DNA of 64,000 nucleotides from Podarcis pityusensis. Its lineage: Eukaryota. The stretch is taken from NCBI GenBank assembly GCA_964106645.2, contig OZ067046.1; one strand, 5' to 3'. The position numbers and the translations under genes were made by a program. Shown here piece by piece: positions 1-44,312 of this stretch (position 1 is the first letter of the stretch; each line of letters starts with the position of its first letter). The notes beneath the pieces were generated by a model, which saw only the letters and a list, made by a program, of their open reading frames with translations, was not told where the DNA came from and did not search any database.

Positions 1-1045
1 ACGCAGGCATGGTTGATTGTCCTCGAAAACACGTATCGGTAGACAATCCACTTCGCAGAGTTCCTGCACCAAACAAGCATAGAACTCTACTTCTCTGCAC
101 ATCTCTGAAAGAGCACTAAACTCAGCCTCAGTGGATGAGAGCGCTATCAGACTTTGCTTCTTGGACCTCCATCCAACTACTGAGTTCCCAAACTTCACCA
201 CTAGGCCAGACACAGACTTGCGATCCTCAAGATTAGCCCAATCCGAGTCCACAAAGCAAGTCAGTTTGACTTCTCCTTGTGCTGACAACATAAGACAAAA
301 ATCTTTGGTCTCCTGCAAATACCTCAGAACTCTTTTGATGCCATTCCAGGCTTGCACACTAGGGTTTGATGCCTCCCTGCTAAGCAGATTGACAGCAAAC
401 GCTATATCGGGTCTGCTCCACTGGGACAAGTACAACAAACTCCCTAGGGCTGACTGAAACACTTCAGTATTTTCGAACGCAGCGCGTTCTGCTTGCTGGC
501 TGTCCTTCACAAAACTAGTCTCCATAGGACTTCTCACTCCTGCACAATCACTCATCCTGAACTTCTGAAGCAATTGCTCAATTTTACCTCTCTGGCTGAG
601 CAAAAAACTTCCACCCTGTGCACGCTCAACATTGACACCTAGATAGGTTTTGACAGCACCAAGCTGTTTAAGCTTGAATCGTTTACCTAGCTCTTTGGCA
701 AACTTCTCCGCCTGTTCATCTGTTTCTGAGACGAAAAGCACGTCATCAACAAAAAACAACACCAGTTCCTGTGAGTCTCCTGATCCTCTAAGGAACAGGC
801 AACTGTCAGCAAGACTCTTCCTGAAACCTAGCTTCTCCAAAGCTTCATTCAGGCACATGTTCCAGTTTCTAGCAGATTGACGTAATCCATAGATGGATTT
901 GTGCAATCTCCACACAACATCCTGCCTTGAGTTCTCAAACCCCGGAGGAGGAATCATGTACAGCTCCTCCTGGAGATCTGAGTTAAGGTAGGCAACATCC
1001 ACATTAAAGTGGTTTACCTTCCAGCCTCTCTGTGCTGCACAAGCT
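1..1045 (-). pseudogene. Copia reverse transcriptase and RNase H (frame open to the window edge; absent from the ORF track)
   Basis: Manual translation gives ACAAQRGWKVNHFNVDVAYLNSDLQEELYMIPPPGF..LHKSIYGLRQSARNW..LFFVDDVL..SRPDIAFAV..CFVDSDWA..DRKSVSG..WRSKKQSLIALSSTEAEF..FEDNQ. It joins the upstream ORF through a 1-nt frameshift near 1045. Confidence 0.95.
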
Positions 1046-2689
1046 TAAAAGCGTTCTCAGAGTCTCCGCTCGTGACGTTGGCGAATACACCTCCGTGAAG
1101 TGTATTCCCTTCCTCTGAGTAAATCCTCGAGCAACTAACCTGGCTTTATACTGCGGCTCTCCAGCGTCAGTGGGTTTCAAGCGGTAAACCCATCTGGAAC
1201 TCACAGCCTGCTTACCCGGTGGCAACTCTGTGAGTGAGAACACACCTAGATCTTTCATGGACTTCATCTCTTTGTCCATTGCCCTGTGCCATTTGCCTGC
1301 TTCTTCCTCAGGTAAACTCTGAATATCCTCGAAGGATTCAGGTTCACATCTTGCAGAACCTACCCAGACGCTTGAAGCGTCGTACCGATCAGGAGGCCTC
1401 CTTGTCCTCGCTGATCTCCTCAGTGTGACTCCTGGTGACCCTGCCGCTTCATTGGGTCCAGCTAAATCATCCTCAACTTCAGTGTCTTCCCCCTCTGACC
1501 TGCTGCGCCTCTTGGGCCTTATAGCTGGTCCAGCAGGTGAAGAAGGCTCACTCTTTGGCTCAAACTTGACACTTGCCTGAGGAGGTGTTCTAGGTTCCCC
1601 CCTCTGAGGGATCCTGAGCTGTCCCTGCCTTGGACTCTGTCCCTCTGGACCGTGGTCCCCAGCTCCAAGTTCCTCCTCCTCCTCGTCTGAGTCATAGAAC
1701 TGCTGTGGAAGCACGTCTGGATTAGCGTGCAGACGCTTCCAACCAGCTTGCTCACAGAACTCAGCGCTATTGCTGATAACCAACCTAGACTGGTCTCCAC
1801 TTGGGTACGCAAACCTCCAGGCCTTTGAGCCAGGCTCATACCCTACAAAGATCATCCTTTTAGATCTTGGCTCACCTTTCTTGCGTAGAGCCTTTGGAAT
1901 AAGCACCCAAGCCTCACAACCAAACACACGAAGGTAGTGTACCTTAGGCTTATCTCCATGAAGTAAGAAATACGGTGTATTTCCCATACTAGAGTTGTAC
2001 ACTCTGTTCTCAGTATGGACCACATAGCGCCAAGCCTCCGACCAAAATTTCTGGGGTAGCCCTGCGTCCCACAGGATCGCAGACACAGCTTCCTGCACCG
2101 TCCTGTTCTTTCTCTCTGCGACCCCATTCTGTTGCGGAGAGTAAGGAGCGGTCAGTCTGTGGCTAATCCCCTTCTCCCTAAAGAAATCCTGTAAAGCAGA
2201 ACCAGTGAATTCAGCACCTCTGTCACTTTGAAAACCACGAACTTTGGTGGAAAAGGTTACCTCAACTGCGGTGATCCAATCCCTGATCATTTTTGCCGCC
2301 TCCCCTTTCGTTTTCAGAGAGAAGGTCCAAGCAGACCTCGAAAAATCATCAATCAAAAGCAAAGAATACTTCGAACCTCCCAGTGACTCAACAGACATGG
2401 GTCCACACAAATCTGCATGAATTAATTCAAAGGGTTGTGTGGTCTGCCTCTCTGACTTTGGATATGAGCATGTCACAACTTTCGCCTGTTTACATGCATT
2501 GCAATCTAGAAATTTGTCACAAACATTAAATTTGCACCCTTGTGTCAGCTCTGGTGCTTTCTGGAGAAATTTCCAATTCAAATGAGCGAAGCGTCTGTGC
2601 CAAATATGTAAACAGCCATTGTGGGGTGCTACATTCACACATTGGCCCTTCGCATCTTCGGTGTCATCCTCTCCTGTGGAAAAAGGCAC
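1004..2689 (-). pseudogene. Copia integrase and RT N-terminus
   Basis: Motifs WHRRFAH..CNAC (zinc-binding), LIHADLCGP, FQSDRGAEF and NGVAERKNR (DDE), LRVFGC..FVGY, then the RT start RWVYRLK..YKARLVARGFTQ. Confidence 0.96.
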
Positions 2690-2701
2690 ATTTAGAGCAA
2701 A

Positions 2702-4030
2702 CTAATTATCTTTAGACTGCACTGTGTACACGTGTTTCACATCCTTGGAAAATTCACATTTGTCACCTGCAAAAGAAATTTGAAAATTATCAATCAATAG
2801 ATCATGCACACTTAACAAACAGTTAGTTAAACCGGGCACTGCATAAGCTTTGACTTCATGCTTAAGGAAAGGACAAAAGAACAGTCCTGTTTCTGTTAGC
2901 CTTTTTCTGCTCCCATCTGCAAACTTAACAAACTTCTCAGTTTTTACTGTCCTGCAATTCCTCAAAAGATCAGCAGATGGCACTAGCGAATTTGAGGCAC
3001 CACTGTCAATTATTATAGTGATAAAGTCTTGTTGTTTACATTCCTGGGTCGCCAGGGCAACAATCTCCTCACTACCCCCCTCCTTGGGGCTTCTGCAGAT
3101 GTCCTCTCTGGTTGTCACAGCAACAGACTCCCCCCGGCAGGAAGACTTGCCCACGACCTTCACAGCTTCCATAGATGCAACTCTCTCAGTTGCCATGGAG
3201 ACTGGACTTGTCTCGGCATTCCCACACAACTCTGAAGCTCTTATCTCAACTTGCTGCAGGTGGCTGACCTTGAAGCCTCTAGCCCTTTTCAGCTTCCCAG
3301 GCTCCGACTCACGACGTAAGCAACTCTTGGCAGCTTTTGGAGAAAGAGGCGTCTCTGAGCTTTCACTGCTCACTGCCCCCCCACTGCTCACGGGGTCTCC
3401 AGAACGTTTTTCTGCACCCCCTCTGAAGGGTAAAGGGCTCTCAACACTCGGCCTCTCTCCAGGTTCTTCACACAGACACGTTGCAGCATCCACACAGCTC
3501 CCAGGCTCAGCAAAAGAACAAGCAGCATTGCTAGCAACAACAACAGCAACAGCAACAGTCCCTTCGCCCCTCTGTGGGGGCTCACAGCTCTTCCCAGCTG
3601 TGTATTGGCACTCAAGGATGTGGCCGGCGCCATCTTGCCTCTCCCTTTCGGATGCAGCCCCTTCTCGGCCCTTGCTTCCCACTCCAGCTCCACAAGCTTC
3701 TTGGAGTGCTAGCCAAGCGGCCTCTGGCTTTCTTGCACCCAGGACAACAGGCACCAGATGAGCATCCACACTTTCTGCCAAAAAAGCAAGCACACGCTTC
3801 TCCACTTCACTTTGCTCTGCAGCCCTATTAGCCTCTCCTTTCCCAGCTGCATTCTGTGTGGGGTGAATTACATTCCACAGCTGCTCCCCCACTAGCAAAA
3901 GCTCCACTTGAAAGCTCCACTGCAGCCAATTTTGGCTAGTCAGTCTCTGACATGGCAGTTTAAACTCAAAGCCATGTTCACAGGGCTGAGCCATTGCCTC
4001 CTTCTGTTGGCTTTTCCCAAAGGTACTCAC
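2702..4030 (-). pseudogene. Copia gag-like protein and aspartic protease (likely start ATG at 3994)
   Basis: Copia gag N-terminus LTSQNWLQWSFQVELLL..LW..AW, protease motif IIDSGAS, and VPGL..CLLSV. Same frame as the integrase ORF, separated from it by a single TAG at 2702-2704. Confidence 0.9.
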
Positions 4031-8770: not shown

Positions 8771-11639
8771 TTTATGCAAGCCAGGGATCTCCATAAAACA
8801 CAGCCAAGTGAACTAAACCACGGACACCAGAAAAATATTTCACACATGAATGCAGTATAGTGGTTAAAAAGCAACTGAGCAATTATAACCATTTACAAAT
8901 GCATCTGTTCCCAAAGTTCCAGCAGCAAAGGCTCTGGCCCTTCATTATCAGCTTGTCCTATATATTCCATTTTTTAAATGACAAGATTAGCCCTTGGGTT
9001 GGATGAATGAAATACAAAATGAATTCTGTGAGATGTTAAAACAAACGAAGACCTTTTGCAGTCATAACACTGCACATGAGGAAAAATTAAAAATAAAAAA
9101 TGTTTCCCTTGGATTTAAAAATATACCTGTAGTACTTCAGGTGATTGTTTTCTTACTGACTTCAGATTGTGAGTCACAAAGGGTCTGCAAGTTTCATTTG
9201 ATGAAGCAGATCCCTCAAGGTCCAATTATAGAGGGTGACATTCAATCAACCACTGCGGGTTTGCTTAGAAATGTTGTTTTCCTAGGACTGATGTGGATAA
9301 CGAGAGAAAATAAATAAATGAGTGCTCAGAACATAGAAATGCATCTTTCAGTTAAAGCAGCCAAAACTGTAGCAAAATATTTCTGTGAAATCAGTTATTT
9401 TATACATACATGCATGCATGCATGCATGCATATATATTGTTTTGCAATACAGGTGCCCTAATGTCTTATCTCTTATATCAACTTTAGATTAAAATGTGTA
9501 ATTAGTTACCAGCATTGCTTCAGTTTGCTTCCTTATTTTTTTATATAAAATGTAACAGTATTCTCTTTAAGGCAGTTAGAAATCTCACAGCTATTTATTC
9601 TGGAATAAAAGCAAAATATATATATATGATAAAAAGAAGTGTGTAGTTCTCTGGTCACTGGGATATCAAATGGAGTTCCCATATAAGAGAAAGAGATCCA
9701 TCATCTCCACTATTACTGGTTCCTCTGAAGGACTGGCCCAACCAATGTTGTGTAGGGCCAAAAGCAGGTATAGGTGTGTCTGGACCATTCTGGGAAGTGG
9801 TTTGGATCCAAAGCCATCCTAGTTCACACACAAACACAAACCCTGAAGAATATTAAGGCATGCTTCTGTTTAAAGTCAAAAGGAGAATGATTCGGCTGAA
9901 CTGGGAAAGTCAGAGGCTGAGGCTTATAGCTTAGTTATGGGACCCCTACATTTCTTTCCAAAATTTTGAACACCACCCTAAGCAACCCAAAGTTTCACAA
10001 CATGTTTGGAGTACCAGTGTAGTCTATGACTAAACTAGGTGAAAAATACTGCATCACAGAACTAAGTCTGAGTTGATAATACCAGCTTTCACTAAAATCA
10101 AGTTAACTTGTCCTAAGGTTATTGAATATAGGATTCTAATCCTTCTGTCTTCAATGCTTAGAAGCTTCTTCACACCAGTGTTGCACCAGTTAATTAAATG
10201 TGAGTTTTGCTGCTTTTATTGACATGCCAGCTTTACCCTGGAAGATGCATTGCATTCTTCTGCATGAAATAGACAGATCTTCTGATAAACTTTAGCACCA
10301 TTACTAACTAAAATAACATTAACGGCAGTTATTTTAAAGGACTGATAATGATCACACTCCCTGGTGACCTGTCCCAAATATCTTTTGGGGGAAGTGCTTT
10401 CATCACTCCATTATTCAGTGTCATGACAGTCCTTTCAGATTCATGGACATTTGGGACAGCTTTAGATAAATTCATCATTTCTAAATCCTTCACTTCTAGC
10501 AATGAACTCCTACAGTTGTGTGTTCATGTGTTTTATTTACTGGGAAGTCAAGGAAGCCCATCTTTCAGAAATGTTATTGAATGTGCAATGCTCTACAGCT
10601 TTGGATGTGATAAGTAGCATGCATCCAAAACTGTTTTACGTCATTTTGTGTGTACATGTAGTTATTATACCTTTTCTTCTAATAGTGAACTCAGGTAAAT
10701 TCTCTTTAGATCTTCATGTTCTAGCCATATGGCTATGCCCAGTGACTCCATTCAACAGCATGCCCTTGGACTCCCAAGATTACACCAAATGTGAATTTAA
10801 GTACTCACATCATAGCATCACATTTTGGGCAAAGCTGGGGCCCTGTCACAAGCAGTCCATCCCTTTTAATCCCTGAGGAACAGGAGAGGTAGATTGCAGG
10901 GTTTTAGCAGCACACAGAGCCCTTTCAAGACACCTGAACTCAGGTAGAGAGTATCAAGAAAAATGGAATCAAAATGGAGCCACTGAAAAACAAGTGGAAG
11001 ATTTTAGCATACTGTACTTGGAGGGAACCTTAACTTTTCAGAAATACAACCCCCACATACCTCCCCCCTTTTTTTTACAAAACACCCAAAACAGTGAAGA
11101 GAGAGAGGACTGAGCATGTTCAGTAACAAAGGGGGTATTAGTATAAAAAGGATAACCAGGGTTATGGAAATGGAATGGAGTGGCTTCCTGTAGGAAGACA
11201 TGATGAGCTAGCTGGAATTCTTCACAGGAGCACATTGCAATACATTGCAGCATTTTTGCTGCACACTCCACAATTGTATAAAATGCCATTTCAAAACAAA
11301 CAGCATTGGTTTCTGTGATATACCTTATGTTGTAAATTGAAGGTTTTTTGTGATGCGGTAAAAAGAGAAATCTTTGAGGCAGCCTGATTTCAAATTGTGT
11401 CAGGACGTATTTCCACATAAAATGGATCCAACCATGTACTTTGTGACTCACAAAACCCAAACGTGCGTTTGGGGTGGGTGGGGATGTCATCCATCTCTTT
11501 TACATTATACATATCATCAAATGCCCCTGAAGCTGAATGATTTATAACACAAATTTGTTGTATAAAAATACGAAGGTTGGAAAATTCTTATGATCATAGC
11601 AGATGGTGTGGTGTTGCTATGCTGCTCACCTGATGTTTG

Positions 11640-12149
11640 TGTCAGGGACCGTGCTGAGGAAGGCTGCACTGAGGAAGAATGGTGGGAGCCTGCCCCTCCC
11701 CCTGCTCCTGCTCCTGAATCTTCCTAGGAGCAGGAGGACAGTATAGATTTGGAACAGTGGTTTGCAGAGGGACATAGTTCAGAAGGCAGAACTGGGAAAT
11801 ACTGGATGGGGGACAGCTAGGAGAAGAAACACTGGAAAAGAGAGGGTTAACAGATTCACAGTCTCTGGACAGCATTCCTCTGCTCAGCCCACGGTGAAGA
11901 AGAGCTCAAAAAGTGTCAGAACAAAAAGCACAGAGGATACAAGCTCATTTTACAAGACGTAGGAGTGGCGTAGATTAATAGGGACGGAAGGGGGTGTGAT
12001 CCTTAATTGGGAGCACCGCCATTTCTAGGAGATGTGTTTTTTGTTCTCTCACTGTGATTATTAAAGTTTCTAACTGGTAGGGCATTCCTTTCTTTGATCT
12101 TCTTATCTACTGCCACAGGGGGAGGGAGCTGATTTCCTGAAGCCTGACA
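11640..12149 (+). mobile_element. Solo LTR, probably Gypsy-type (510 bp)
   Basis: Termini TGTCAGG...CCTGACA, perfect 5-bp TSD GTTTG (11635-11639 and 12150-12154), ATTAAA near the 3' end, homologous to 30107-30690. Confidence 0.9.
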
Positions 12150-13039
12150 GTTTGTCTGGCTGAGTCACTGCTGCATATTGGAACAGAGAGGGGCAGGAGC
12201 ACAGCAGAAGTGAGGTTGGCATGGAGGAAACACACCAGTGGAACCAATCCAGTGCTACTGCTAGTGCATTTGCACCATGCCTACATTGCTGTCCCACTTC
12301 CCCATCCCTGTATAATGCAATGCCTCAGCCAGCTGGAGGTCAGGTGAGTGACAGAGCCCCACCACACTGGCCACTGCATGCTATAACTTAAGTAGAACCA
12401 TGAGTAATTAGATTAAGGATCCATCAAGATTTCTCCAGTAGTCTGTGAGGAAATGTGCATCTTGCACTACCCACCACCACCACCTCCCATCTTCTGACTT
12501 TAAGAGATTTTGTGCCCTCTAAGATTATACCGTTGTTGTTATTGTTCTTCATTAAAATCGCCTTCCACATATATGTGTCAAGGTGAGGGACAAGATATAA
12601 TAAAAACAGCAAAGAAGATAACAGCACCTGAAAAACAATAAAATGAGGCATTCATGGCAGGTCCACATACAATAGCATTGTACTTGCTTGCGGGGATGTA
12701 ACAGATTGCCTTTCTTCTAGATCACACTGATAGTTCTACTGCCTTTGGGAGATGGTACTGCTGCCATCTATTATAGAAAAGGTAATGGATCTGGTAAATG
12801 CAAGAAACAACGGAATAGAATACAGACGTGAATTCCTGGTCTTGGTCATTAAAGGAAGAGAAAGCCACACCTGATTTTAATAGAAGTGCTGAAAACCAGG
12901 ATCATATGAATGGAGCCAAAGCTAATTGAATTGAACCTAATTCCTCAGACATAAAGTTCTCTAGTTTATTGTAATTGTACATTTTCCCACCAACTACAGT
13001 CTACTTAATCTAGAAAATAAGTGGAGCGTATGTGTGATA

Positions 13040-28351: not shown

Positions 28352-28529
28352 GACCCAGTTTGAGTGGTACTACTGCAGGGTATTGGAATACTAGATGAGC
28401 CTCAGGGTCCCTTCCAACTCTGCTTCTATGATTTTTTGTTGACCCAGTTTGAGTGGTACTACTGCAGGGTATTGGAATACTAGATGAGCCTCAGGGTCCC
28501 TTCCAACTCTGCTTCTATGATTTTTTGTT
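28352..28529 (+). repeat. Perfect 2 x 89-bp tandem duplication containing a CR1 3' terminus
   Basis: Units 28352-28440 and 28441-28529 are identical and contain CTAGATGA..GGTCCCTTCCAACTCT..TTCTATGATT. Confidence 0.93.
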
Positions 28530-30106
28530 GTTGGTAAGTGTGGTCGACAATCCCATTGCAGAAGATTACTTCTGTGCAGAAGCCCTCCCATGCAGAATTG
28601 CAGCTAGCTCCCAGTGAAGGGGTACAGCCAGCTCTCAGGGAAGATTTGCAGACAACTAAAGGAAGCAGCCAGGAACAGAAAGGGTTAACTTTCATGCAGG
28701 ATGATCAGCAGAGAGAACTAACTCCCCTGCCCCTAGGAATGCCGGGTGATAAGAGAATGATGGGGCGTGGGGGAACCCAGTTGGAGTTCTTAGGAAGTTC
28801 AATCAGGCAGGAACAGAGACGGAAACAGTTTGTCAGAAAGGGAGGAAGGGGAAGCTGATCCAATCTCTCCTCAGAGTTGGTTCAGGGGAGGGTTGCTAGA
28901 CAGGAAACAAAACAAGAGACACCGGGTTCGTAAATTCAATTTTCGGCCTTCTAGGGATTAGAAGGATTAGAGGGACCTATGGTTTGAATGCATATAAACA
29001 GCTTCCTGTGTTCCTCTGAAGAGCAGTGCCATACCCTGCTGCTGCATAGGATATATTGCATAGACATGCTATAAAGTGCTGTGCTCCATGTAATAGCAGA
29101 TATTTGCAAACTGGCCCACAGTTCCCAGACTATGATTATACTGTTTATGACAAGCATATTTTCCATGTAACAGGTGGCTGTGAAACGAGCTAATATTTGC
29201 TCCTTTTATGAATGGTAAAAGTCAATGTTTAACAGTGCGGCACATCAAGATAGGAGCTTTGTATAATCCTGTTTTTTGGTGCTGTGGCATGTAATTGTGA
29301 GCATGGTAAGAGCCCCAAGAAAAGGGAGACACTTTTCTCTCTCTCGTGCCATTCTGTCCACCACAAAGGAACAGTCATTCAGTCTGCTCCACCTGTGCTT
29401 TTCACATTCAAGCTGGTATCAGCAGTGAGAAACAGGAAATGAATAGCACCGGGTGTAAGAGAACAGGTAATTTTCAATATTAGAACTGTCTGAGTATGCC
29501 CTGGGAGGACAGCTTAAATAGATACACACAGTCACTGTTTAGGGTCCACCTTTGATGTTTTATGACTGATTTAATTATTCATTGTATTCAAGTATAATCC
29601 TACAACTGTCAGGATGTGCCTTTTTGCTTTCATGTTGACTTCTGTTCATATTTTGGCAGCTTCAGGCATTCAGATGATGACAGAGAAAGCATCAGTCACT
29701 TCTCTTTGTGTATCCTTTGTAACGTGGATAGTAAAGGATTTGCTCACTCGTATCTCCTGCGGCGAGATGGATGAGCTCCACATGAATCTGAAGATCAGGC
29801 ATCCACATATTTACTGCCTTCTCAGTCCACTTTCTGGATGAAGTGGGCTCGTGCTTTTGAAATCTCATTCTAGAACAAAATAAAATGTGGCAACTCTCTG
29901 TCTCTTAAAAGAAGAATCTCCCTTTGCATCAAAGGATGGACAGACAAATCCATAGGCAGTGACTGCTTTGATCTCTCTCCCATCATAGAAGTAGAGGTGG
30001 TGTGAAGTAGGGTGGGGAATGTTTTTTTAATGTTAATTTGAACTGTTAGTTTAGAGAAAAGGCAAGCAAGAGCTGAATGACAGAAGTGTATAAAAGTATG
30101 TATGGC

Positions 30107-30690
30107 TCTCAGGGACTGGGCAGAGGAGGAATGGTGGAGACTGCCTCCCCAGCCTGACCCTTACAGGGAAGAAGAAGACAGTTCAGAATTACAACAGGCG
30201 TTTGAGGGAGGTCATAGCTCAGAGGAAGATGAGAGGGAAAGTTGGGAAATAATGGGAGAGGAGGAGGAGGCAGAGCCAGAGCAGCTGGCTGACATGTTAT
30301 CACTAGAAAGCATTCCAGACCCACCATCTCCCAGAACCCAGCAAGCCTTAAAAAAGGAGACCAAAGGGCTCAGAAGCAAAAGGCCCTCAGTGCCAGCCGC
30401 AGAAGGGACGATGAATGAGGAAGTGGGAGAGAAGGGGAGGGGAGACTTACTCGGAGCAACACCATTATTCCAAGACATATCTGTCAACGTTTTCCTTTTT
30501 TTAAGAGAAATTCCCTTATTCCAAATAGGATTCCTCGCAAGAAAGGGAAAAGTTGACAGTTATGTTCCAAGAGGCTGCCTTTCTAAGCCTCTCTCTGTGA
30601 ACAGTGAATAAAAAGCAATTGGTAAGAACTTCCTTGTCTCATCCATTCCTGGCAACTTACTGTGGGGGTTTGATCCTCTAACGCTTGATA
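30107..30690 (+). mobile_element. Solo LTR, same family as 11640-12149
   Basis: Decayed termini TCTCAGG...CTTGATA, perfect 5-bp TSD ATGGC (30102-30106 and 30691-30695), AATAAA near 30607. Confidence 0.85.
30476..30564. mobile_element. 89-bp hAT-type MITE nested in the LTR
   Basis: TIRs CATATCTGTCAAC/GTTGACAGTTATG; perfect 8-bp TSD TTCCAAGA. Confidence 0.9.
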
Positions 30691-32399
30691 ATGGCATGGT
30701 GAATTTGGATAGAGCAAAGTTTTTCTCCCTTTCTCATAACACTAGAAATTGGATACGTCCAATGAAGCTGAATGTTGTAAGATTCAGCACAGGGAGAAGA
30801 AAATACATATTGAAACAGTACATAATTAAACAGTGGAATTTGTTCCCACAAGAGGCAGTTATGGCCATCAACTTGGATGGCAGTAAAAGAGGGTTAGATA
30901 AATGCATGGAAGTTAAGGCTATCAGTGGCTGCTCACCCTGATGGCTATGTTCTACCTCCACTGTCAGGTGAATCCAGCAGGCGCTTCTCATGTTTTCGAC
31001 ACTGGATCAGGTGATACAGTTCTAGCCTGCTTTTAAGTTTTGTTTGCCCAGTACCCCTGGGCACTTCACTTTGCTTCACTTTCTGTAATTAAAAAAAGAA
31101 AAAAGAAAAGAAGCAACCTCATGCAATTTGCAGACTTTCCCACTCAATTGTAGAAAGGCTTCTTATTTCAGGAGGGTTGGCATGCACATAATTCCTGCCT
31201 AGATGTTATTTCCAAAGAAGTAGTCAAAGTACTCGAACCAGAAAAATACTATTGACAAAAGTTTATTATCTACAAATCCAATATTGCTTTCTGCTCCTGC
31301 CTATGTAGGGAAAGGCAGAAATTGCTAAGAAGTCCACCAGAGAATGACTGTATTAATGGAAAATGTATATTTTGGTTGACTTGTGATTTCTTGGGAATAT
31401 TACCAGAGTCGTATATTAAAGGGAATTAAAGACAATCTGTCTGATCTTTGTAGCTGGATTATGCAGTGTTGGAGCAGAGTTTACAAGCGAGCCAAGAAAA
31501 TCAATGATTAGAAAGTATAAAACATAATTTTAATTTAGAAGAACTAACATGTTACCAAGAATTTATTTTGCACTTGGTTAATTGCTATTTTCCATCACCT
31601 GTGAACTAGCCCACTATGAAATGATCTCTGTTTCATTACTTGGACCAGTGGTTCAATCAGATGCAAAAGATCCAGCCATGGATATCACCTATTTTATTTA
31701 AATTCATTGTGCAAGGGAGAGAGCAGGGCAACACTGTATCAGAAGAGACTTGAGCTGCATGAATGCATCCATGGGATGCTCTGATGGCATTGTTCCTGGA
31801 GATCAAAGTAAAGTCACTGGCTTTCTTGTACTTGTGATTTGTATGTTTTGTCATTTCAAGGACACCTGTATGATTTGGTTTCATATGCCTTTTGTGTGTG
31901 TGAAGGATAGCAAAGCAAATGAAGGCAGACAAGCAAGTAGCAGCACTGGTAAAGCCAGTAAAGGAAAAGGTAAGGTAAAGGGCACTGCATCAAATCCCAC
32001 TGAAATGCTCTATTTGTAACACCATTGCCACCCGCTAATAGTCTTTCTCTGTCCTTACCAGATACTTTTTCAGTCTGAGGGACACATGCTGTCATGCGCA
32101 GCCTTCTGAGGGCTGAATGCGAATGTGAGTGCTGAGCCAGAGTTAAAAAGTGGTTGAGATGATAGTTGTAACATTTAGCTTTGTGCAGTAGACTATATAT
32201 TCCGGCAACACAAAAACCAGAGGTTTGTACATGCATCTGTTCATCCTCAATCCAGGCAAGCAAAAGGAATGATCACAGTTCAGGTACACATGGTGGTCAG
32301 CCAGAAGCAGTTGAAGAAGTTACAGAACAGGGCTGGTGAAGAGTTTGGCATGGCGGGGTAGTGTCAAAGATCAGATAGAAAGTCCTGGAGGGTCATATT

Positions 32400-41904: not shown

Positions 41905-43584
41905 TTAACATTCACTCAAGTTACAATATTTTTGTAAATAGTTCTTAAATTTCTTCCAATCCTCCTCAATCCTCTCTTCTCCCAGGTCACGAATTCTGCC
42001 TGTCATCTCAGCCAATTCCATGTAGTCTATCAGTTGCATCTGCCATTCTTCCAGTGTGGGTAGATCTTGAGCTTTCCAATGCTTTGCGAGTAGTATCCTT
42101 GCTGCTGCTGTTGCATACATAAAAAATGTCTGGTCCTTCTTTACCACCCCTTGGCCGACAATGCCCAAAAGAAAGGCCTCTGGTTTCTTAGTGAAGGTAT
42201 ATTTAAATACCTTTTTCAGTTCATTATAAATCATTTCCCAGAACGCCTTCACTTTAGGGCAAGTCCACCAGAGGTGGAAGAATGTTCCTTCACACTCTTT
42301 ACATTTCCAACACTTATTGTCAGTCAGGTGGTAAATTTTTGCAAGTTTGACTGGGGTCATATACCATCTATATATCATTTTCATTACATTTTCTTTCAAA
42401 GCGTTACATGCAGTAAATTTCAATCCAGTACTCCACAACCTTTCCCAGTCCTCAAACATAATGTTGTGCCCAATGTCCTGCGCCCACCTTATCATTGCCG
42501 ATTTAACCATTTCATCTTGTGTGTTCCATTTTAACAGCAAGTTATACATCCTTGAAAGTACCTTACTCTTAGGTTCTAACAATTCTGTTTCTATTTTCGA
42601 TTTCTCCACCTGGAACCCTAATTTCTTGTCATTTTTAAAAACTTCTTTAATCTGAGCGTAATGTAACCAGTCTCGCACTTTATCCTTCATTTTCTCCAAA
42701 CTCTGCAGTTTCCAATTGTCTCCATCTTTTTCTAGAATTTCCCAATATTTTGGCCATTTGGCCTCCATATTGGGTCTTTTTCGGGCCTTAGCTTCCAAAG
42801 GTGAGAGCCACCTTGGGGTTTTATTTTCCAGCAAGTCTTTATATTTTGTCCAGACATTAAACAGTGATTTTCTGACAATATGGTTCTTAAAGGCCTTATT
42901 TGCTTTAACCTTGTCATACCATAAATATGCATGCCATCCAAAAGCATTGTTAAACCCTTCCAAATCTAACACATCAGTGTCTTCAAGAAGTAGCCAATCT
43001 TTTAGCCAGCAGAACGCTGCGGCTTCATAATACAACTTTAAATCTGGCAGGGCAAAGCCCCCTCTTTGTTTTGCATCAGTTAATATCTTAAACTTAATTC
43101 TGGGCTTTTTGCCCTGCCAGACAAACTTAGAGATATCTCTCTGCCACTTCTGAAAGCACTCCGTCTTGTCCAAAACCTGAAGTGTTTGAAATAAAAATAG
43201 CATCCTTGGCAATACATTCATCTTGATAGCAGCAATTCGGCCTAACAAAGAAAGTTTCAATTTTGACCAACTATCTAAGTCTCTCTTAATTTCTGCCCAA
43301 CATTTTTCATAATTGTCCTTAAATAGACTTAAGTTTTTCGCTGTTATGTTTACCCCTAGGTATTTTACTTTTTTAACCACATTAAGTTCCGTCTCTTTCT
43401 GAAACCGTTCTGACTCTGTATCTGTCAAGTTTTTTCCCAAAACCTTAGTTTTCTGTTTATTTAATTTAAATCCAGCCACCCGACCAAAGTCATTAATCAG
43501 TTGTAATACTCTTTTCGTACTAGGCTCTGGCTTCTGCAGGGTCAAAACCAGGTCATCTGCAAAAGCTTTTAATTTATATTGTTT
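41905..43584 (-). pseudogene. L1 ORF2 C-terminal half (RT from FADD onward, Cys-rich domain)
   Basis: KQYKLKAFADDL..YLGVNI..LSLLGRIAAIKMNVLPR..GGFALPDLKLYYEA..CWKC..GTFFHLWWTCP. Confidence 0.95.
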
Positions 43585-44312
43585 CGGATCCGGTTGGTAG
43601 TAGTGTCATGTCCATTTTTACTGCATTATGGTCGGAACAGGTCTTTGGGCAGATTTCCACTTTTCTGACCTTAGGTGCCAGGCCTCTAGATATCCATATT
43701 TGGTCGATTCTTGTCCAGGTCAGTTGGGCTTCAGAAAAGAATGTTCCCTCTCTTCCTAGTGGGTTCTTTGTCCTCCAAATGTCAATCAAATCCATATTGT
43801 CTGTCATTTCAAAGAAAGTTTTAGGTAGTCTGCCGTCTTTTGTAACATTTTGGCTTTGTGACTTGTCCATGTTAGTTGATACGACCCCATTCATATCTCC
43901 CATCATTATGATGTTGTTGTAGTCCAGATAATCCAGCATTGTCTCCTGCAGCTTCTTGTAAAATTCCGATTTCCCTTCATTAGGTGCATAGATTCCTAAT
44001 ATCAACAATTTCTCTCCTTGATGTTGTATCTCAATTGCCAAAATTCTTCCATGTTCATCTTTAAATAAGAATTTAGGTGACAGGCTCTCTTTCGCATATA
44101 TCACCACACCTCTCTTCTTAACTTTGTCCGACGATATAAATTCCTGGCCCAATCTTTTATTTATTAACACTTTTCTATGGAGCCTCGTCACATGTGTTTC
44201 CTGTAGACAAATAATGTCCAATTTGTTCTTTTTTTAATATGTGAAATATTTTCTTCCTTTTTTCCGGAATGTTACAACCATTAATATTCCAGCTCAACAG
44301 TTGCAGAGACAT
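43585..44312 (-). pseudogene. L1 ORF2 AP-type endonuclease
   Basis: MSLQLLSWNING, then a 1-nt frameshift near 44230, then DIICLQETH..IYAPN..GDMNG..RIDQIW..SDHNAV. Confidence 0.95.

Follow-up and report, generated by a model that had tools for sequence, protein, structure and literature searches.

The two LTRs at 11640–12149 and 30107–30690 of the 64 000-nucleotide stretch of Podarcis pityusensis DNA analysed here (the window) are solo LTRs of a lizard chromovirus (Ty3/Gypsy) with a chromodomain at the C-terminus of its integrase, and the frame that begins at base 2 of the LTR is the end of Pol. It is close to certain that this read-through Pol tail has been under selection, and it is probable that the selected tail is a disordered integrase extension serving nuclear import and chromatin docking. 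Pol tails coded in an LTR have been described in plants. The present one belongs to a group of vertebrate chromoviruses, follows an intact chromodomain and shows measurable purifying selection. LTRs are usually taken to be noncoding, whereas in this abundant group of vertebrate retrotransposons about two thirds of the LTR codes for protein.

The window LTRs and their reading frame

Both LTRs reported in the preliminary description are present, each flanked by an exact 5-bp TSD. The first (copy 1, plus strand, 11640–12149) is 510 bp long, has sibling copies, ends in TGTCAGG...CCTGACA and lies between two copies of GTTTG (11635–11639 and 12150–12154). The second (copy 2, plus strand, 30107–30690) lies between two copies of ATGGC (30102–30106 and 30691–30695) and its ends are eroded. 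It is interrupted at about 30474–30564 by a short inverted repeat of MITE-like type (self-inverted match 30475–30565, 74%) that was inserted later; these ~90 bp are absent in the sibling B copies compared. The two are poorly alike as DNA, the best BLAST piece showing 66% identity over 113 nt, and they belong to two separate high-copy subfamilies, A (copy 1) and B (copy 2). A first look at the 1.5-Gb genome yielded 1900 candidates of subfamily A, 2501 of subfamily B and 2595 of a third, B-like subfamily C. For A and B 40 candidates each were scored and 30 each were retrieved; the other 39 of the 40 scored A candidates (among the 1900) are 86–93% identical, and a TSD with at most one mismatch flanks 18 of the 30 A loci and 20 of the 30 B loci. 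The copies are spread over most large contigs, with no clustering apparent on inspection of the match lists. Thus, copy 1 has TG...CA ends, both window copies have a TSD and dispersed relatives, and LTRs of their kind adjoin polypurine-tract and integrase DNA, as expected of solo LTRs. At first, the lack of common internal sequence in the flanks of the 30 best copies of subfamily A had suggested a MITE or a DNA transposon with inverted ends of 7 bp; this reading was dropped once the junctions between polypurine tract and integrase were found.

The peptides previously quoted from LTR base 2 were recovered from both copies, with one change of frame needed in each. In copy 1 the decayed C-terminal Pol tail occupies about 110 codons of U3 (11641–11978, plus strand; family stop 11976–11978), with a one-base frameshift near 11790 and in-frame stops at 11725–11727 and 11895–11897; in copy 2 the corresponding tail (30108–30418, plus strand; family stop 30416–30418) has a one-base frameshift near 30350. 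Both tails are therefore broken. The stops in copy 1 had been attributed to decay after insertion; sense codons are present at both sites in most sibling copies. The first 300 nt of the frame from LTR base 2 are free of stops in 12 of 27 A, five of 28 B and five of 30 C copies (three A and two B loci with no recognizable LTR start are left out of these counts), while any frame other than that of Pol is stop-free over this length in two copies at most, the reverse frames in at most two of 27 A copies and in none of the 28 B or 30 C copies. The open copies encode 102–120 residues with a common basic tail at the end, and the A peptide contains no Met, that is, no in-frame ATG.

Downstream of the family stop, copy 1 carries a GGGAGCA motif (12009–12015, plus strand; LTR nt 370), which resembles the self-priming site of an intact sister family (LTR nt 391–392 in L132, L133 and L136) and may be the start of R and the self-primer. 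Since this motif lies 3' of the stop, the peptide would be encoded wholly within U3. An ATTAAA motif at 12060–12065 (plus strand; LTR nt 421) is a likely polyadenylation signal.

Continuity of the LTR frame with Pol

A pattern search for a purine run ahead of the LTR start led to copies in which the integrase end and a chromodomain are coded upstream of the LTR. The 86 loci examined yielded 45 distinct chromodomain matches and, from these, 34 LTR junctions, of which 22 are in frame; sibling loci are not independent, and the 12 out-of-frame rows include two mis-picked junctions (L119 and L131). The suggestion that Pol reads across the polypurine tract and on into the 3' LTR was borne out at the junctions with LTRs of A, B or C type, where chromodomain, polypurine tract and LTR peptide form one frame in seven of nine cases, again with siblings that are not independent. 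A chromodomain (PF00385) scores above cut-off directly upstream of B-type LTRs in L070 and L071, and a chromodomain end also precedes an A-type LTR in L093, where it is in frame with 118 open LTR codons; this LTR is 76.5% identical to copy 1 over 498 nt. A second class of junctions, with GCATC before the motif (L062, L063 and L072–L076), proved to be an unrelated repeat and was dropped. No intact full-length element of A, B or C type was found among the seven regions retrieved (L140–L146), and the evidence for the fusion in these subfamilies comes from decayed copies. One of the seven, L145, is a remnant of this type with two LTRs and decayed pieces of gag, protease, reverse transcriptase (RT) and integrase.

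Intact elements are available in sister families, in which pol is continuous with the LTR frame and no fixed stop lies upstream, a point that the preliminary description had proposed to test on full-length elements. The 1270-residue Pol of L132 and L133 ends 352 nt inside the 3' LTR, which is 99.8% identical to the 5' LTR, and its domains in L132 are, in order, protease, RT, RNase H, integrase, SH3 and chromodomain. The Pol of L136 has 117 codons within the LTR and that of L138, from a second sister family, has 102, so that the intact sister families overall place 102–117 Pol codons in the 3' LTR. A PBS with a 10-nt complement in the element's own LTR is found in all four sister-family elements tested; no element of A, B or C type that retains an intact 5' LTR and PBS came to light. 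The nearest named protein to one sister element is from Podarcis muralis (98%). An open reading frame separate from pol, with a start of its own, was rejected: the A peptide lacks Met, and the intact relatives have no fixed stop upstream.

The sister family of L132, L133, L136 and L137 appears in many further matches of equal score and is very young, with dozens of open 1270-codon Pol copies. Its LTR-coded tail ends in RRSARL, which we take to be a motif of the type that binds the nucleosome acidic patch. RNA reads from this family (91, 76 and 21 in three runs) lie mostly in the orientation that a stranded library should give; they cover pol, polypurine tract and LTR at low depth, with a depth of 2–6 across the junction of polypurine tract and LTR in one run.

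The full-length RNA of an LTR element carries U3 at its 3' end only. Accordingly, the 3' LTR in the full-length source RNA would be the only template for the tail and, because subfamily A has no in-frame ATG, the tail would be translated only as part of Pol. Ribosomes finishing Pol would continue through the polypurine tract, the purines of which code for Glu and Gly, and would stop about 35 nt ahead of the putative R, yielding an integrase with a chromodomain and, behind it, about 125 tail residues, of which about 105–110 are LTR-coded. Solo LTRs would retain the tail as a silent fossil.

HIV nef and MMTV sag are separate U3-overlapping genes with starts of their own. The earlier appeal to them as precedents holds in so far as protein-coding sequence lies in U3, but the lizard peptide is the end of Pol, and the closer precedent is that of the plant CRM elements (PMC3059260, PMC3605345). 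In CRM group A the gag-pol frame is described as extending into the 3' LTR, which codes for a centromere-targeting CR motif (PMC3059260, excerpt), and several Bingo and Beetle chromoviruses of beet are likewise described with a Pol that extends into the 3' LTR (PMC3605345, excerpt). The lizard Pol frame resembles both groups in entering the 3' LTR, the plant LTR part being a putative targeting domain in these excerpts. In CRM group A, according to the available text of PMC6317226, the LTR-coded motif has replaced the chromodomain; in contrast, the lizard tail is added behind an intact standard chromodomain and has neither a CR motif nor a Pfam match. The likeness to CRM is thus one of layout only, and the lizard elements are not classed as CRM. 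They share with the Tf1/sushi group (the fungi/vertebrate cluster of Ty3/Gypsy, with Sushi-ichi and Tf1) the order gag, then PR-RT-RH-IN-chromodomain, as well as the 5-bp TSD and the TG...CA ends, and the intact sister families also share the self-priming type of PBS, a layout given as a feature of that group in the part of bioRxiv 2022.12.06.519325 consulted. Unlike in these relatives, the lizard Pol continues for 102–118 codons into the 3' LTR. A literature search made up mostly of titles and the opening lines of abstracts, with Repbase and Dfam outside its scope, returned no LTR-overlapping Pol tail from squamates or other vertebrates, and the available portions of PMC2577118, PMC2864245 and PMC10854676 contain nothing on LTR overlap.

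The LTR boundary is located 16 codons past the chromodomain end in L070, L071 and L132, and 45–50 codons past it in L081, L108, L112, L125 and L138; despite this shift, an aromatic motif stays 23–26 residues past the chromodomain, which indicates that LTRs can be redrawn over coding sequence. A short tree of the integrase end and chromodomain, with a support of 0.88 for the group with the far boundary, suggests that the near position is the older. In this tree, which contains no named reference elements and omits L089, L093 and L095 as too short, 20 lizard rows form a clade (0.99) and two frog proteins come next. Two frog Gypsy proteins (P0003 and P0004) extend beyond the chromodomain Trp by 287 and 161 residues, with a Gly-rich junction, and at the protein level LTR read-through may extend to amphibians. 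Contig C19 of the genome (G000) holds 18 of the 30 best internal-region chromovirus loci, a concentration that would be expected of a low-recombination chromosome such as W.

Purifying selection on the Pol tail

The differences between the two window copies had been described as mostly synonymous, which is correct for the conserved blocks and not for the whole: the 88 aligned codons comprise 20 identical, 20 synonymous and 46 non-synonymous pairs and two stop codons, with 32, 32 and 49 mismatches at the three codon positions. To measure selection, we aligned all LTRs at the DNA level, irrespective of frame, and compared real copies in pairs. Between A and B the mismatch over 90 codons is 0.348, 0.348 and 0.603 by codon position, whereas 3' of the stop it is flat (0.477, 0.462 and 0.506). 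Across 27 A and 28 B copies the third-position excess is 0.256 in the coding part (95% codon bootstrap 0.145–0.363) and 0.036 after the stop (−0.081 to 0.155); once many copies are compared, the codon-position bias is far above chance. Mismatch within subfamilies is also flat (0.096, 0.110 and 0.104), and selection therefore acted in the source elements and not on inserted solo LTRs.

The mismatch between A and B at fourfold sites (0.717) is near saturation; because dS is saturated there is no usable dN/dS for this pair, and a value of 0.03 was discarded as an artefact. Two intermediate LTRs (L093 and L130) were used instead, being unsaturated against A, and gave dN/dS values of 0.43 (0.25–0.71) and 0.38 (0.21–0.63), respectively, as against 0.91–1.18 in the other sense frames. 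The comparison of B with C is weaker, with a net value of 0.42 and an interval that reaches 1.25 (0.17–1.25). Of the indels common to at least two copies, nine of 11 in the coding part preserve the frame, as against three of 12 beyond the stop (Fisher p = 0.012). Together, the position bias, a ratio of about 0.4 as against about 1 in other frames and the mostly frame-keeping coding indels uphold the earlier claim of purifying selection between subfamilies. The A and B peptides have only 45% of their residues in common, and more distant families share short motifs only.

Conservation could in principle reside in the DNA, U3 being the normal place of a promoter, or in an antisense reading frame, with the sense peptide incidental. 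The antisense frame that has its third positions in common with the sense frame also gives a low net dN/dS, 0.20; the three-base period found only before the stop and the frame-keeping common indels are nevertheless unexpected of DNA sites, reverse frames are hardly ever open (at most two of 27 A, none of 28 B and none of 30 C copies) and the sense frame is continuous with pol. This very improbable explanation is largely refuted.

Still less probable is that the host has co-opted the window copies, or other solo LTRs, as a small gene coding for protein. One Podarcis gene model for SPARC (UniRef, P0021) does contain at its N-terminus a 42-residue stretch of the A peptide, in frame with SPARC; this start would be a mis-predicted or exonized LTR, and an LTR-coded tail accounts for such odd exon-like matches in gene models. 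Both window copies are broken, however, and divergence within subfamilies is flat over codon positions. None of 100 and none of 200 RNA reads placed on copy 1 reaches 99% identity and none falls on its upstream flank; for this reason, the reads on copy 1 are assigned to other copies.

Because of their coding content, the thousands of lizard solo LTRs are fossils of integrase tails and constitute a large data set on the evolution of this segment of Pol.

Anatomy and possible roles of the tail

The LTR-coded part is predicted by AlphaFold2 to be mostly unstructured, with a short helix at residues 35–40 and a confident basic helix at residues 82–108 (pTM 0.29). Nine residues are invariant in 16 open copies of the three subfamilies: Trp15, Leu35, Phe39, Ser45, Glu46, Glu51, Pro82, Val90 and Glu92. 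The tails of A, B and C contain a helix ending in Phe, a 10–13-residue S-S-E linker and a W-E-I block; in the A model the helix at 35–40 is followed by this acidic linker with a pLDDT of about 60–70, and the pattern is loose. Across families an acidic-aromatic motif (WW or FxGF) ends 23–26 residues past the chromodomain end in eight of the 17 rows shown, a spacing that holds with the LTR boundary at 16 or at 45–50 codons, and a basic motif of the SP[RK][ST]RR or RRSARL type lies near the end of the tail. Presumably, SPRxRR resembles nuclear localization signals (NLS) or kinase sites.

On the basis of these motifs, of the predicted fold and of analogy, a role of the tail in nuclear import or chromatin tethering is somewhat favoured. 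The acidic and aromatic blocks (EEEWW; the helix ending in Phe, S-S-E linker and WEI block) would bind a chromatin factor or a transcription factor of the host, and SP[RK][ST]RR together with the basic helix would act as an NLS or as a nucleosome or DNA anchor. We infer such a module in preference to two others, both of which retain translation with Pol. It is possible, at a clearly lower probability, that the tail is a tolerated spacer with no partner, kept open, acidic and soluble or required to place the stop near the poly(A) site. A spacer would fit the weak constraint (dN/dS near 0.4), the variable linker lengths and the poor alignment of distant families, as well as the fungal-type chromovirus proteins, which end soon after the conserved Trp of the chromodomain (seven of the nine fungal or environmental relatives with a chromodomain end 50–75 residues past it). 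Against a spacer, Trp15, Leu35, Phe39 and others are invariant across three subfamilies while synonymous sites are saturated, and SP[RK][ST]RR and the acidic-aromatic motif recur at fixed spacing across families. It is improbable that the element's protease releases the tail from Pol to work as a separate small factor, such as an acidic transcription activator or a particle RNA chaperone: the acidic, Trp/Phe-rich N-terminal part and Arg-rich C-terminal part of the tail would generally suit an activator or nucleic acid chaperone, yet the equivalent plant CRM tail is described as the integrase C-terminus in the available text of PMC3059260.

The import or tether role admits a more specific and rather doubtful version, drawn by analogy, in which a second targeting module behind the chromodomain, mostly written in the LTR, mimics host TND-interacting motifs (TIM). 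The integrase would recruit LEDGF/HRP2 or another elongation factor with a TFIIS N-domain through a linear motif of cellular type, composed of helix, acidic linker and FxGF in one family and of a WW/WEI variant in the family of the window, and the SPRxRR basic helix would provide import or a grip on the nucleosome. A TIM consists, in the part of PMC9987994 consulted, of a short helix, an acidic Ser-rich linker of 8–16 residues and an optional FxGF, and that review gives all known LEDGF/HRP2 partners as having FxGF. The layout of one sister family (L125–L129 and L138), with FxGF, appears similar in sequence to this TIM/IBM layout as excerpted, and the helix and linker of A, B and C also look similar; unlike a TIM with FxGF, however, A, B and C lack this motif, and in the sister family it lies upstream of the LTR. 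It was found there at six loci, for example in L138 (2247–4919, minus strand; residues about 752–769), where the helix ahead of it is of low confidence and the single-sequence fold of the tail is poor (pLDDT 51.6). The literature search returned no FxGF or acidic-patch motif tied to a retrotransposon integrase in the titles and abstract openings that made up most of it. If such mimicry were real, a retrotransposon would reach, by a route of its own, the tether to which HIV integrase binds through a different interface. The chromodomain and the second conserved tail offer a testable handle on insertion-site choice by vertebrate Gypsy elements.

The fairly young family with FxGF comprises L125–L129, L134, L135 and L138, and has helix, acidic linker and FxGF directly after the chromodomain. 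No Pfam family was found for the tail peptide. Of 1.84 billion proteins searched with a profile, eight matched, seven of them unnamed open reading frames on contigs of 533–1235 nt and one a Podarcis gene model; a separate search of longer proteins returned no homologue, which is weak evidence. The ESM Atlas provided no usable match to the tail, its leads all being under 0.8.

Other repeats are present in the window. An acidic-aromatic block and an RRSxR motif likewise occur in the integrase tail of a Copia-like element on the minus strand (1004–4030), which has open frames of 565 and 442 codons. Pieces of a LINE-type ORF2 (endonuclease, RT and C-terminal part; 219 and 566 codons) lie on the minus strand at 41905–44233, and a perfect tandem duplication with an 89-bp unit is located at 28352–28530.
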